Origin: a virus
Length of the DNA: 25,299 nt
Strand: one strand, 5' to 3'
IMG/VR virus record: IMGVR_UViG_3300012016_000039
Location: 1 to 25,299 of that record
Shown: piece after piece, positions 1 to 22,104 of the stretch
Position numbering within the stretch: the first letter of the stretch is position 1
Layout of the letters: the number at the start of each line of letters is the position of its first letter
The notes under the pieces: model-generated
What the model was told of the DNA's origin: nothing
The model's input: only the letters and a program-made list of their open reading frames with translations
Database searches by the model: none
Position numbers and translations under genes: made by a program

Positions 1-3
1 AAT

Positions 4-87
4 AGCAGGATACCGCAAAAGCGGCTGGTCCTAATCAAAGCAAACGTGTAAATAACCGCAAACTTTTGATAGAGGAGCGGCTATTTT
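4..87 (+). ncRNA. sRNA S1, family A putative antitoxin (cognate of T1)
   Basis: AGCAGGATACCGC-AAAA-GCGG 5' hairpin, ACCGC...GCGGCT terminator-like stem plus T-run; 5' part nearly identical to S13; promoter lies before the window start. Confidence 0.7.
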
Positions 88-167
88 ATTAATTCTTTAA
101 TTATTTTAACTATAAATAAAGAGTTAACAACAATCTGAGATATAATAAAAATATCATTCAGACTCAT
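81..167 (-). CDS. T1 small hydrophobic peptide, putative type I toxin (MSLNDIFIISQIVVNSLFIVKIIKELIK, 28 aa)
   Basis: Manual translation; SD GGGGGTGAT; TATAAT at 225-230 (-); anti-SD stem in the UTR; convergent with S1. Confidence 0.75.
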   Translation of the reverse strand: MSLNDIFIISQIVVNSLFIVKIIKELIK

Positions 168-266
168 TATATCACCCCCTTTAAAAGGAGAGTGACCAAC
201 CGCCCCGGACATCCTGCTTATCTTATTATAAAACATTGACATTTAGTTTTAAAGTGATACAATAAT

Positions 267-349
267 AGCGTGACTCGTTTGCGGGTCGTTATATTAATCG
301 TTTTTAGTTATTATTATAACAACCACATTCACAGTGCGGTTGCTTTTTT
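267..349 (+). ncRNA. sRNA S2, family B orphan antitoxin-like RNA
   Basis: TTGACA(236)-16-TACAAT(258); 5' hairpin CTCG-TTTG-CGGG, middle stem GTTATA/TATAAC, terminator CAACCAC...GCGGTTG-T6; no toxin 5' half downstream. Confidence 0.7.
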
Positions 350-370
350 AAAATAAAGTGATATAATAAG

Positions 371-452
371 AGCGTAGTCCATTACGGGCTCGTTTTTCAA
401 GAAAGATTAATTTCTTTTATTACGTCCACGACTGCGACGCGGGCGTTTTTTT
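371..452 (+). ncRNA. sRNA S3, family B putative antitoxin (cognate of T2)
   Basis: TATAAT at 362-367 with -35-like TTGCTT supplied by the S2 terminator; AGCGTAGTCC...GGGCT hairpin; terminator ACGTCC...GGGCGT-T7. Confidence 0.7.
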
Positions 453-517
453 ATAAAAGAAATTATTATTATTATTTTTATGATAATATCTAATATATCT
501 TTTATAATTTGGAACAT
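407..517 (-). CDS. T2 small hydrophobic peptide with basic tail, putative type I toxin (MFQIIKDILDIIIKIIIIISFIKKRPRRSRGRNKRN, 36 aa)
   Basis: Manual translation; SD AGAGGTGAT; TATAAT at 593-598 (-); ORF runs antisense through the S3 terminator. Confidence 0.75.
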   Translation of the reverse strand: MFQIIKDILDIIIKIIIIISFIKKRPRRSRGRNKRN

Positions 518-638
518 TCAATCACCTCTTCCCTACCTTAAATTAAGGTATAGAGAAAAAATGAACCCGCAATCACGAACTACGCTAAACCTATTATAAA
601 TTATTGACAAACGAATATGAACTAACTAAAATACAAAA

Positions 639-709
639 TGTCTGGTAGATACCAGCAAAAACGACAATCAAAATTAATCTCCTTTAAGATGCGGGAGGTT
701 AATTTTTTT
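639..709 (+). ncRNA. Unrelated two-hairpin sRNA Sx (possible third antitoxin family)
   Basis: TTGACA(604)-17-TAAAAT(627); CTGGT-AGAT-ACCAG hairpin; terminator AATTAATCTCC...GGAGGTTAATT-T run; no ORF on the same strand. Confidence 0.5.
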
Positions 710-773
710 CTTGAGAATATTCTGAGATAATAGTATAATAGTAGAAAAGTATTAAAAAATAATATTAAAGGTA

Positions 774-19511: not shown

Positions 19512-19640
19512 ATGACATATGAACTAATAAAGAAGAACTTTGATAGAGGGCTGTGGAATGAAAAACAGTTAGAGCTAGCAAAGACAAGAGGTTTTATTAC
19601 GGAGAAACAATATAAAGAAATAATAAGTAGTAAAAAATAA
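19512..19640 (+). CDS. xkdX: XkdX-family small phage protein (MTYELIKKNFDRGLWNEKQLELAKTRGFITEKQYKEIISSKK)
   Basis: 42 aa, missed by the track; IK..FD.GLW...Q...A...G.IT..QYKEI pattern; SD GGAGG; promoter TTGACA(19453)-16-TATAAT(19475). Confidence 0.8.
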   Translation: MTYELIKKNFDRGLWNEKQLELAKTRGFITEKQYKEIISSKK

Positions 19641-19643
19641 ATT

Positions 19644-19674
19644 AGTCCCACGCTTTCTTGCGTGGGAATTTTTT
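19644..19674 (+). terminator. Intrinsic terminator between convergent genes
   Basis: TCCCACGC-TTTCTT-GCGTGGGA stem plus T-run. Confidence 0.75.
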
Positions 19675-20257
19675 ATGCCGAGCGGTTGTACGATGGCATC
19701 CAGTCATCCGGTCCATTAAGGTCTTCATAAAATTCTATAAATTCATTTACCCTGTCAATTGTTAATTTATCAAGTTCATAATATTGAATATTCATAGTCA
19801 TATCATGTCTAAATTTCATCCCATGAGATACCATAAATTCTTTAATTTCTTTTTTAATTCTTTTTCGTTCACTACTTAGAGTAAAATCTTCATCATTTAG
19901 ACTAGACCTGGGGATTTTACAATCATAAGGCATAGTAGAGATGATTCTTTGAATTGAGCGCAAATAGTCCGTTTTTTCTATTTCATTTAATTTTGGATTA
20001 TTATCAATTATTAACGAACAGATTTTTTCATATATCGCCAATTCTTCTTTTGTCGCGTCCAACAAAACTAGAGCTTGATATTCACCATATTCCCTATTAG
20101 GGTCTCTAAGGACTTCAGTTAGCCATTTCGTGTGTCTTTCATACCTTTGTCTATGATATACCGTCCGAGGTGAATTAACATCTTTATACACATAAACACC
20201 AATAGATGAAAGAAATAAACCAGAACCAATTAAATAACACATAAGTCCATTAGTCAT
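19673..20257 (-). CDS. Hypothetical protein with N-terminal membrane anchor (cargo)
   Basis: 194 aa; hydrophobic LMCYLIGSGLFLSSIGVYVY; overlaps the stop of the upstream gene by 8 nt. Confidence 0.6.
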   Translation of the reverse strand: MTNGLMCYLIGSGLFLSSIGVYVYKDVNSPRTVYHRQRYERHTKWLTEVLRDPNREYGEYQALVLLDATKEELAIYEKICSLIIDNNPKLNEIEKTDYLRSIQRIISTMPYDCKIPRSSLNDEDFTLSSERKRIKKEIKEFMVSHGMKFRHDMTMNIQYYELDKLTIDRVNEFIEFYEDLNGPDDWMPSYNRSA

Positions 20258-21602
20258 GTGGCAACTCCTTAATATTATTTATATCATCTTTCATGTTTTT
20301 TGCAAATCTTTTAGAAATAGTTAAAGCGTCTTTCAGTTGCATTATAGTTTCACGATAACGTTCCCCACTATTTCTGACTGTTGGGCTCATAGCATTAGGG
20401 ATTTTATGGAAATAGAGGAAAGATTGCTGAGGCTCACTAAACCTATTAGCAAGGGCCAATCCAGGGATCCAAGTATTTAAATTTCTTCTATCAATTGCGC
20501 ACACCAAAACATTAGCATCTAATACTTTATCAGTTTCATCTATTATTTGTGAATATAAGTCTCTAAGGGCTTGTTCGGTACAATCAACTCTTTGCTTAGT
20601 AAGTTGAACACTCAAATCAAAATTACCATCAGAATTAAGTGAATTTTTTGAATTTTTTGCAAGGCCCCAGATTATATTATCTTTTACACCAGTAAGTATT
20701 TGTCGCCCGGCAATACTAGTGGCCAAAACAGCACCTTTCTTCATAGCAAGTGATGGGCATTTAACACCAATAGATTTAAGCCATGAGCCAAGAGCCTCCA
20801 AAACTTCAGGAGCGATTTTATAAGCACCATTTACTAATTTACCACCAAATGTGCGAATATTATTATACCCTAATTTCTCAGCAGTTTTTTTTGAAACAAA
20901 CGTTGTACCATTTTTTGCCCAAAAGGATTTAGTAGCACTCGTAGCGCAACGAGTTGCCCCACCAGATGCGCAACCGAACGGTACGAACATTACAACCAAT
21001 GATATAATATCAAAAATATCCCAAGCAACTCCCCAATAACTTCGTTCAAGTGCCATTGAGACGGTAAACATTGAAGCTACTACAGCATTTGCAATATCAA
21101 TAGCGTGGTGACTTTTGAAATTACCATATCCATAAAGGCCCCTACCTAAACTTGTAATGGAAGGTTTAATTGAAATTTCTTCACTTACGTCCGCTAAAAA
21201 ATTTCGCAAACGTTCATCTTCGTCCTTACCTTTTATTTCATAATTTCCACTATAAATAGCTTCAGCGTATTTTCTAAGAATATCCATAGTGTTTTGAATA
21301 GCCTCAAGATAATTTGGAATAATTCCCTTATTCGAATCAAAAGCACTATGCACATTATGAAGTGTTATAGTTCTTAGCTCATCATACAAGAAAAAATCTT
21401 CCTTACGAGTGTACGAAACATTAGTCGACGATAAATCGTGAATTTTATTATATTCTATTTCTTGATCCAAATATTTTTTTACTAATTCAGGATGTTCCTT
21501 TAAAGGATCAAGATTACCAGCGAAAGAAACGTTACTATTGAAAAACAAAGCTCCAACCCCAAGTATACAGCTCAACATTTTTTTAAAATGTCTATTAATC
21601 AT
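20250..21602 (-). CDS. Hypothetical secreted protein (cargo, about 450 aa)
   Basis: ATG 21602 with SD GAAGGAG; signal-peptide-like MINRHFKKMLSCILGVGALFFNSNVSFA; central hydrophobic Gly/Ala/Cys-rich segment. Confidence 0.65.
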   Translation of the reverse strand: MINRHFKKMLSCILGVGALFFNSNVSFAGNLDPLKEHPELVKKYLDQEIEYNKIHDLSSTNVSYTRKEDFFLYDELRTITLHNVHSAFDSNKGIIPNYLEAIQNTMDILRKYAEAIYSGNYEIKGKDEDERLRNFLADVSEEISIKPSITSLGRGLYGYGNFKSHHAIDIANAVVASMFTVSMALERSYWGVAWDIFDIISLVVMFVPFGCASGGATRCATSATKSFWAKNGTTFVSKKTAEKLGYNNIRTFGGKLVNGAYKIAPEVLEALGSWLKSIGVKCPSLAMKKGAVLATSIAGRQILTGVKDNIIWGLAKNSKNSLNSDGNFDLSVQLTKQRVDCTEQALRDLYSQIIDETDKVLDANVLVCAIDRRNLNTWIPGLALANRFSEPQQSFLYFHKIPNAMSPTVRNSGERYRETIMQLKDALTISKRFAKNMKDDINNIKELPHD

Positions 21603-21804
21603 AAAAACTCCTTCAAGTGCAAATCGCACATATTTATAAGATGAGAATATATTAAACACAAAATATAAAAAGTTGTCAAGACCTATAATTAATGCAGTAG
21701 ATTTTCAAACAGTTGGGGAATATAATGCTTTAAGGTATGGTTTATTGAAGTGCGGGTCGTTTTTCTTTTTTGAGAAGGTTTATCGCAAGAAAGGAGGCGA
21801 TAAA

Positions 21805-21933
21805 ATGTTTGATTTGATATTCGATATTTTGATCATATTGATTGAGATAATTCAATTAATACTTCAAATAAAAGAATACAAAAATAACAACCGCACCTGC
21901 AATGTGGTTGTTATAATTAATATCAAAAACTAA
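21805..21933 (+). CDS. T10 small hydrophobic peptide, putative type I toxin (MFDLIFDILIILIEIIQLILQIKEYKNNNRTCNVVVIINIKN, 42 aa)
   Basis: Internal ATG of track ORF 21673-21933; SD AGGAGG; TATAAT at 21721-21726. Confidence 0.78.
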   Translation: MFDLIFDILIILIEIIQLILQIKEYKNNNRTCNVVVIINIKN

Positions 21934-21963
21934 ATATAACGACTCGCATAATGAGCCATACCT
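21880..21963 (-). ncRNA. sRNA S14, family B putative antitoxin (cognate of T10)
   Basis: TGATATAAT (-) with hexamer at 21966-21971; GCTC...GAGT hairpin, GTTATA/TATAAC stem, AACAACCAC...GCGGTTGTT terminator. Confidence 0.72.
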
Positions 21964-21981
21964 TAATTATATCATAGAACC

Positions 21982-22066
21982 AAAAAAAAACAACCGCACC
22001 GGTAATGTGGTTGTTATTATAATCATAGATTAAAAACAATAACGACCCGTACAATAGGCCATACCT
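21982..22066 (-). ncRNA. sRNA S15, family B orphan in tandem with S14
   Basis: TTGACT(22098)-18-TACAAT(22074); same layout as S14; T9 terminator tail; antisense frame KNNRTGNVVVIIIID* without a toxin 5' half. Confidence 0.7.
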
Positions 22067-22104
22067 CAATTGTAGAATGAAAAAGATAAAAAAGTCAATA
22101 GATC

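Follow-up and report, generated by a model that had tools for sequence, protein, structure and literature searches.

The closest described system to the one reported here is bsrG/SR4, a type I toxin-antitoxin (TA) system of the Bacillus subtilis SPbeta prophage. Probing by Jahn and Brantl showed that nucleotides 1-35 of the bsrG mRNA pair with nucleotides 232-262 to form helix P1, and that the Shine-Dalgarno (SD) sequence lies in a 4-bp helix (PMC3834814). Once SR4 is bound, nucleotides 1-33 of bsrG are single-stranded and the SD helix is extended to 8 bp, and SR4 both promotes decay of the mRNA and blocks its translation (PMC3834814). In the layouts collected in T1TAdb, the antisense RNAs (asRNAs) of Gram-positive families partly overlap the 3' end of the toxin mRNA, and fully overlapped asRNAs have been described in Gram-negative ones (PMC8594479). 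Type I TA modules are also known to stabilise Clostridioides difficile prophages (PMC7699646). Here we describe the intergenic cassettes of a virus genome, IMG/VR record IMGVR_UViG_3300012016_000039, whose entire 25,299 nucleotides (nt; G+C about 31%) are the window of this analysis. In each cassette, a gene for a putative membrane peptide faces a small antisense RNA (sRNA) unit. With a probability of roughly 75%, these are type I TA cassettes with the bsrG/SR4 architecture, made of two new peptide families and carried as self-contained morons by a probable phage-plasmid. The kind is known, namely type I TA with bsrG/SR4-type RNA logic. What is new are the families, the compact dual-coding layout, the density, the promoter-bounded turnover, and the orphan arrays whose cognates are found in a sibling phage.

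Six intergenic clusters, amounting to 12.7% of the window, hold ten peptide genes (four of family A and six of family B) and 15 promoter-hairpin-terminator sRNA units (Table 1, in which mRNA and sRNA ends are predicted). An earlier note on this DNA had placed ten open reading frames (ORFs) of 21-42 amino acids (aa) in these clusters, and all of them are there, as are the units facing them. Every ORF has the SD, the -10 box and the hydrophobic stretch with basic residues that the note described: the SD is of the GGAGG or GAGGTG type, 6-9 nt upstream, and the stretch is followed by K, R or N. The split into two families also stands. Family A (T1, T3, T5, T9) encodes peptides of 21 or 28 aa that end in lysine, with the stop codon at the base of the facing unit's terminator. 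Family B (T2, T4, T6, T7, T8, T10) encodes peptides of 33-42 aa, and its ORF passes through the antisense terminator hairpin to end 20-46 nt from the sRNA start. The conserved tail motifs of family B (YRA..TVV, RPRR..RGR and NNR..VVV) are thus the two arms of the terminator stem, read in frame. The description of the pairs as fully overlapping is borne out in part: in family B the ORF runs through the sRNA terminator, and in family A the ORF and sRNA share only about 10 nt, where complete overlap would follow from the 5'-3' helix discussed below. This layout combines both T1TAdb classes. An sRNA unit does face each ORF, but speaking of ten modules understates the locus, because ten units are cognate (S1, S3, S4, S7, S8, S10-S14), five are orphans with no toxin opposite (S2, S5, S6, S9, S15), and the cassettes turn over. 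Each unit generally has its own promoter, as had been claimed, except that the promoter of S1 lies off the window; its homologue in G004, a complete 40.5-kb IMG/VR genome with direct terminal repeats that is collinear with the window and 93-98% identical to it, is preceded by TTGACA..TACAAT. The best sigma-70-like sites of the window, with 11-12 matches out of 12, are almost all sRNA promoters. The sRNA promoters are near consensus, and those of the toxins have a good -10 box and a poor -35. Terminator-like sites occur at two to three times the shuffled expectation.

The peptides behave as genes. Over the 19 identical codons of five family B homologues (KIIQILNIILLILQILSFF), 12 nucleotide sites vary and 12 of 12 changes are synonymous; judged by its codons, family B is under purifying selection. 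More than 30 homologous ORFs remain open despite the AT-rich DNA. Among 13 distinct family A genes, the frame, the length (21 or 28 aa) and the M-N-x-D-L-L...K-K pattern are all kept, and substitutions are mostly among I, L, V, F and M. The synonymous-only sites, the open ORFs and the kept family A pattern together indicate that the peptides are real genes. They belong to no named family, in agreement with the earlier note: Pfam, NCBIfam and PHROG give no match at a meaningful E-value for either family, and the hidden Markov models (HMMs) of Fst/Ldr, TisB, Hok, PepA1/PepG1 and TxpA match none of the peptides. The sole trace among these toxin models is PepG1, at E 0.02 and 14.5 bits for a cut-off of 70. 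T1 resembles TisB in length and pattern, but membership was rejected, there being no HMM hit. An exhaustive profile search of 1.84 billion representative proteins found 22 relatives, all unnamed and all from metagenome assemblies, compared with just 3 from a word-index search.

The RNA leaders carry a second layer of conservation. In an alignment of 20 family B sequences, the SD is paired with an anti-SD segment, and the two enclose an inner hairpin whose sequence varies. Of the cells in this helix 90% are paired, a figure that falls to 42-55% if the partner columns are shifted along; compensatory changes affect 9 of 16 pairs, and none of 500 shuffles reaches the observed covariation score. 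Covariation across the aligned sequences supports an SD-sequestering fold for the family B leader. A covariance model of this leader, R1, recovers all six family B toxins of the window. In family A, the SD is predicted to sit in a hairpin, CACUCUCC-loop-GGAGGUG. Together with homologous modules elsewhere, selection on the peptides and covariation in the RNA, the excess of promoters and terminators shows that the cassettes are more than chance.

The first 28 nt or so of each mRNA also resemble the first 28 nt or so of its own sRNA. Since the sRNA is antisense to the 3' part of the mRNA, the resemblance allows the two ends of the mRNA to pair with each other. In minimum free energy (MFE) folds, all ten predicted full-length mRNAs of the window are closed in this way, with the SD paired. 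Over 27 modules (the window and 12 loci), the mean 5':3' duplex is -36 kcal/mol for cognate ends versus -28.5 (B) or -33 (A) for non-cognate ends within the family. Duplexes with shuffled partners average -14 kcal/mol, none of 5000 permutations is as low as the cognate set, and in 26 of the 27 the forward pairing exceeds the reverse control in strength. Pairwise alignments and duplex energies served for these comparisons, as the family B 5' ends fell out of register in an ungapped MAFFT alignment. Differences from sRNA to mRNA are directional, with 33 C>U and 30 A>G against 4 U>C and 4 G>A, which suggests that the mRNA arm pairs via G.U wobbles.

Each sRNA is perfectly complementary to its own predicted mRNA over 74-93 nt, pair by pair. 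The cognate duplexes range from -134 to -173 kcal/mol, and every other pairing reaches at most -81. Orphans show half-strength matches to neighbouring toxins: S5 is partially complementary to T4 (-81 kcal/mol) and T6 (-75 kcal/mol), and S2 and S15 match T10. The idea that orphan sRNAs of the window target toxins of two metagenome-assembled genomes (MAGs), G002 and G003, was unsupported for these genomes, as terminator stems alone match.

A model of cassette function can be proposed by analogy with bsrG. A weak promoter, consisting of a -10 box only, would give an mRNA of 190-230 nt encoding a single-helix membrane peptide of 21-42 aa. The first 28 nt or so would pair with the mRNA's own 3' end as the equivalent of helix P1, and the anti-SD segment directly behind this closing helix would hold the SD in a second helix. 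With both helices formed, the full-length mRNA should be compact, probably stable and poorly translated. On the opposite strand, a near-consensus promoter would drive an sRNA of 74-93 nt in which an AU-rich segment links a 5' hairpin to a strong terminator. By prediction, its perfect complement is the last third of the mRNA, which takes in the 3' arm of the closing helix. Since the sRNA covers this arm, its 5' end is the Watson-Crick version of the G.U-wobbling mRNA 5' end. It should therefore displace the mRNA 5' arm, forming a long duplex that RNase III could cleave and leaving the SD helix intact or slightly longer. Constrained folds with the sRNA bound give an equal or lower SD-to-AUG accessibility in nine of ten mRNAs, a modest result of prediction. 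If the element were lost, the sRNA would decay while the mRNA persisted, and the presumably toxic peptide would damage the membrane, resulting in post-segregational killing. Recombination at the repeated promoter sequences would allow cassettes to be gained, lost and exchanged, and loss of a toxin half would leave its antitoxin as an orphan. The type I TA reading already put forward in the earlier note fits every feature that can be tested in silico.

No Rfam family reaches its gathering threshold in the window. At E<=1, the 4227 families searched give four hits, all to BsrG (RF01412) and all on toxin-mRNA strands. The best is T9 (31.1 bits, E 5e-4), at exactly 19435-19243; it begins at the predicted 5' end of T9 and stops where S13 starts, and its two ends are placed in the outer helix of the model. 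The other three score 21.6-22.9 bits and include T1 (206-74) and T5. Like bsrG/SR4, the cassettes are probably prophage-borne and combine a gene for a short hydrophobic lysine-ending peptide with a putative convergent antisense RNA over the mRNA 3' part. By prediction they also share the 5'-3' closing helix of the mRNA and, above it, a helix that takes up the SD. Geometry, promoters and terminators fit an antitoxin complementary to the P1 3' arm and to the ORF end, whose binding would free the 5' arm. They differ from bsrG/SR4 in their model score, which is below the gathering threshold, and in having no peptide similarity. The RNAs are also shorter: the mRNA has 190-230 nt rather than 296, and the sRNA 74-93 nt rather than the 180 or so of SR4, so that it apparently lies wholly inside the mRNA. 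There is no separate mRNA terminator after P1, the family B ORF reads through the antitoxin terminator hairpin, and a phage carries up to ten cassettes plus orphan sRNA arrays. Because model score and peptide homology both fail, the cassettes are not formal members of RF01412.

Other known systems share single traits with the cassettes. In C. difficile prophages (CD0977.1/RCd11 and others; PMC7699646), there are several modules per prophage with antisense antitoxins, and the toxins, which have a hydrophobic N-terminus and a basic tail, occur on the episomal ParA phage phiCD38-2. The host lineage and RNA sequences are different, however, and the type is unrelated: among the small ORFs of phiCD38-2, the toxin (50 aa, MDNFLLNVLAG...) has no significant family B profile match, and R1 has no hit. 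The B. subtilis pairs txpA/RatA, bsrE/SR5 and yonT/SR6 have the same 3' overlap, with the asRNA over the ORF end in Gram-positive prophage-like regions (PMC8594479), but their RNAs are much longer and no Rfam, Pfam or NCBIfam match links them to the window. In hok/sok and aapA1/IsoA1 the toxin mRNA is likewise locked by a long-distance 5'-3' interaction and SD sequestration. There the mRNA is 3'-processed and the asRNA targets its 5' region or translation start, whereas the target here would be the closing-helix 3' arm. Many paralogous, mutually specific pairs per genome are known from ibs/sib, ldr/rdl and aapA/isoA, but the density here, one toxin per 2.5 kb, is far higher, the cassettes are bounded by promoter repeats, and cognates of the orphans are found in the sibling phage.

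Comparison with G004, whose positions 33915-9394 on the reverse strand correspond to the whole window, reveals how the cassettes change. The T3/S4 cassette (240 bp, 3331-3570) and the T8/S12 cassette (262 bp, 18950-19211) are both absent from G004. In the window a 34-nt promoter repeat (TTGACAAAAATTAAAAAAGAGGTAYAATARTAGC) stands on both sides of each cassette, and G004 carries it as a single copy. The interval that separates the capsid gene from the following structural gene holds S8/T5, S9, dam, S10/T6 and S11/T7 in the window; in G004 it holds an S10-like orphan and S11/T7 together with another B module, and in bajarodcaudo virus 3 the two genes are directly adjacent. At the T2/S3 site, G004 has a different, intact B toxin, at 33425, whose antitoxin is the S2 homologue, and window S2 forms a duplex of -97 kcal/mol with its mRNA. 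The S6 homologue of G004 faces an intact toxin at 30240, with whose mRNA window S6 reaches -122 kcal/mol, and the S7 homologue there is an orphan. Orphans in one phage are thus cognates in the other. S10, the cognate of T6 in the window, likewise has an orphan homologue in G004. In all these comparisons, the lost half is the toxin and the antitoxin remains, as expected of a lethal gene and its antidote. Behind the capsid gene, before its structural neighbour, 1.66 kb of the window (11696-13361) correspond to only about 90 bp in G004, at 22673-22583; this block holds two toxins and three sRNA units along with the gene for the Dam methylase (12150-12977). Opposite T10, the sRNA array numbers two units in the window (21880-22098) and three in G004 (12640-12930), where a different unit adjoins the toxin and the toxin C-terminus is altered accordingly, which suggests that arrays grow and shuffle by tandem duplication or insertion.

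The modules are not confined to these two phages. At E < 1e-8, R1 has seven hits in G004 and nine in another phage, G005 (45 kb). It also has 20-28 hits on 15 contigs of a single 1.2-Mb MAG, the "uncultured Clostridia" genome G002. Within the genus of G002 (genomes of about 1 Mb), four of ten species have hits, and none were found among the genomes searched in samples of 120-150 others from its family and order. That family is apparently Acutalibacteraceae, and the family samples of the MAG G001 and of G002 largely coincide. In all, homologous modules are present in at least ten other viral or metagenomic contigs and four MAGs. Family A occurs in further viral and metagenomic contigs, seven times on one 40-kb contig; a viral scan for its leader found none with a fixed gap and found homologues with a variable gap. 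The count of ten in 25 kb noted earlier therefore holds, but such density is typical of this phage group and host genus rather than special to the window. Against cultured phages and plasmids, megablast, blastn and tblastn returned nothing for the window, a cluster or a toxin, although the low-complexity filter of tblastn may mask peptide matches.

Several observations weigh against the bsrG-type reading. No peptide model matches, and the BsrG hits remain well under the Rfam gathering score (31 versus 55 bits). In the predicted mRNAs, the complement of the sRNA 5' hairpin has no canonical terminator behind it, and the closing helix therefore depends on presumed read-through. The SD helix is predicted to be closed even without the sRNA, which leaves toxin translation without explanation. 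Finally, the wobble bias lies mostly at stem positions of local 5' hairpins (41:3, versus 24:11 at unpaired ones), and part of it could reflect a conserved local hairpin instead of a long-range helix. This last point supports an alternative that we consider possible but improbable, in which the 5' sequence shared by mRNA and sRNA is simply a common local hairpin, serving as protection from 5' exonucleases or as a protein-binding site, and the sRNA acts through its 3' overlap alone. C>U and A>G changes preserve such a hairpin too, and a leader-only consensus fold predicts a small one. However, local 5' hairpins attain only about -4 to -11 kcal/mol, with -4.5 for those of the mRNAs, while the 5':3' helix amounts to -36. 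Unpaired positions show the bias as well, and position 1 changes from A to G five times and never in reverse. Between the window and G004, TGGTC has become TAGTC in the 5' ends of both S1 and T1, with flanks 100% identical; this is the sole change in the T1 leader, and it sits at a bulged position of the local fold. The long-range helix is proven in bsrG (PMC3834814), and the BsrG model aligns the ends of T9 in the same manner.

The peptides could instead be small phage membrane proteins under antisense control, with the sRNAs as regulators and no addiction; they might, for example, time lysis, exclude superinfecting phages or defend the lysogen by abortive infection. The moron location inside a phage genome suits this idea, as does the link of type I modules to phage exclusion, but we think it unlikely. 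Peptides of 21 aa made of one hydrophobic helix and KK are typical type I toxins, and to our knowledge they are too small for any known holin. A lethal gene with its antidote is a better fit to the strict one-to-one pairing, to the strong, constitutive-looking sRNA promoters and to the pattern of loss. Least credible of all, with hardly any probability, is that the units are promoter-terminator insulators or decayed repeats with accidental ORFs. Short ORFs are indeed plentiful in AT-rich DNA, and such ORFs are rarely called, with only those 22 cluster representatives in the protein search. The synonymous-only variation in the family B helix, the frames kept open in so many homologues, the conserved SD spacing and the covarying SD helix all speak for genes. 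The type I TA reading with bsrG/SR4 architecture is thus the one that we retain.

The large genes of the window are, by annotation, those of a tailed phage with plasmid-like functions. Besides ParA, DnaB and a DnaC-like loader (Table 1), they encode an SPP1-type portal, BspA-type leucine-rich-repeat proteins, the major capsid protein, a Dam methylase and a tape-measure protein. The BspA-type proteins (278 and 109 aa; 7011-8245) lie between the portal and head genes, and the second resembles a truncated copy. As G004 is collinear and 40.5 kb long, the window represents about 60% of such a phage; the remainder of G004 encodes a terminase, an ERF recombinase and two methylases. Neither the window nor this remainder yielded an integrase. 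Together with ParA this suggests an episomal prophage, and with DnaB and the DnaC-like gene also considered, an episomal or phage-plasmid lifestyle is probable. The nearest named phages are bajarodcaudo virus 2 and 3 (capsid 67% identical), the latter (L001) from woodrat faeces, and the modules were not found in either. L001 and phiCD38-2 (L180) contain other small hydrophobic ORFs with the appearance of type I toxins, for example MLDIIILIIFVASLLSLIIYVAYSFKKHTKI in L001, which are unrelated to families A and B. Two more small units were seen in the window. One, at 604-706 (+), differs from families A and B and has a TTGACA-17-TAAAAT promoter, a short hairpin and a strong terminator (TTAATCTCC...GGGAGGTTAATTTTTTT); it is divergent from T2, just upstream of the promoter of a 332-aa gene, and 100% identical in G004. 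The other, at 19453-19667, has a 12/12 consensus promoter, a 42-aa ORF (19513-19641), which we take to resemble a phage XkdX-type small protein, and a bidirectional terminator (19646-19667).

Table 1. Predicted toxin mRNAs, sRNAs, promoter repeats and replication or partition genes of the window
Feature	Positions	Strand	Details
T1 toxin mRNA, family A	4..218	-	ORF 167-81, 28 aa MSLNDIFIISQIVVNSLFIVKIIKELIK; -10 box at 230, leader AGCAGGAT, SD in hairpin, MFE closed 5'-3'
S1 sRNA, cognate of T1	4..96	+	promoter beyond left window end
S2 orphan sRNA, family B	267..349	+	promoter 236-263, 11/12
S3 sRNA, cognate of T2	371..452	+	extended -10 box, 5' hairpin, terminator
T2 toxin mRNA, family B, RPRR..RGR tail	371..586	-	ORF 517-407, 36 aa; R1 67.7 bits
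ParA	1983-2753	-	large-gene annotation
S4 sRNA, cognate of T3	3361..3445	+	promoter 3330-3357, 11/12
T3 toxin mRNA, family A	3361..3552	-	ORF 3501-3436, 21 aa MNWNLVLLFLILLLIFLITKK
Promoter direct repeat bounding T3/S4 cassette	3330..3363, 3570-3603	+	alignment with G004 (single copy)
S5 orphan sRNA	3601..3674	+	facing no toxin; preceding promoter site at 3570, 11/12
S6 orphan sRNA	3695..3774	+	G004 homologue cognate of toxin at 30240
S7 sRNA, cognate of T4	3796..3869	+	
T4 toxin mRNA, family B	3796..4013	-	ORF 3944-3819, 41 aa; R1 75.9 bits; synonymous-only variation
DnaB	4052-5347	-	large-gene annotation
S8 sRNA, cognate of T5	11698..11789	+	promoter 11667-11694, 11/12
T5 toxin mRNA, family A	11698..11901	-	ORF 11848-11783, 21 aa MTADLLLIFLILLIILLLLRK
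S9 orphan sRNA, divergent 5' end	11969..12053	+	
S10 sRNA, cognate of T6	13074..13152	+	promoter 13043-13070, 12/12
T6 toxin mRNA, family B	13074..13302	-	ORF 13230-13102, 42 aa; R1 68.2 bits
S11 sRNA, cognate of T7	13373..13461	+	promoter 13342-13369, 11/12
T7 toxin mRNA, family B	13373..13589	-	ORF 13520-13419, TTG start, 33 aa; R1 41.8 bits
Promoter repeat bounding T8/S12 cassette	18950-18983 / 19212-19245		alignment with G004
S12 sRNA, cognate of T8	18981..19060	+	promoter 18950-18977, 12/12
T8 toxin mRNA, family B	18981..19194	-	ORF 19123-19001, 40 aa; R1 59.3 bits
S13 sRNA, cognate of T9	19243..19328	+	promoter 19212-19239, 12/12
T9 toxin mRNA, family A	19243..19435	-	ORF 19384-19319, 21 aa MNIDLLIIFFILIIIYKIIKK
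T10 toxin mRNA, family B	21734..21962	+	ORF 21805-21933, 42 aa; R1 43.3 bits
S14 sRNA, cognate of T10	21880..21962	-	
S15 orphan sRNA	21981..22065	-	promoter 22098-22069
DnaC-like loader	23883-24656	-	large-gene annotation

The cassettes add two unannotated, very compact type I toxin families and their RNAs from uncultured gut Clostridia and their phages, where type I systems are almost unknown because such small genes go uncalled. They would extend the bsrG-type design, in which the antitoxin and the mRNA 5' end compete for the 3' arm of the closing helix, well beyond Bacillus, and they supply about 30 natural variants with built-in compensatory changes. The two near-identical phages catch cassette gain, loss and swapping in the act, with orphan antitoxins as what remains after loss of a toxin half, and the ten mutually specific pairs in 25 kb would offer a ready supply of short, orthogonal RNA regulators. 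Antitoxins that lack their own toxin are able to neutralise toxins of other elements (PMC12548467). A more speculative proposal, which we advance only tentatively, is that the cassettes and orphan arrays form a combinatorial code of addiction and anti-addiction between competing sibling phage-plasmids. If so, each phage would carry a changing set of toxins together with a library of antitoxin sRNAs that neutralise those of its relatives or of the host genus. The cassette set would then decide which elements displace, coexist with or exclude each other, and the exchange of cassettes at the promoter repeats they share would generate new specificities.

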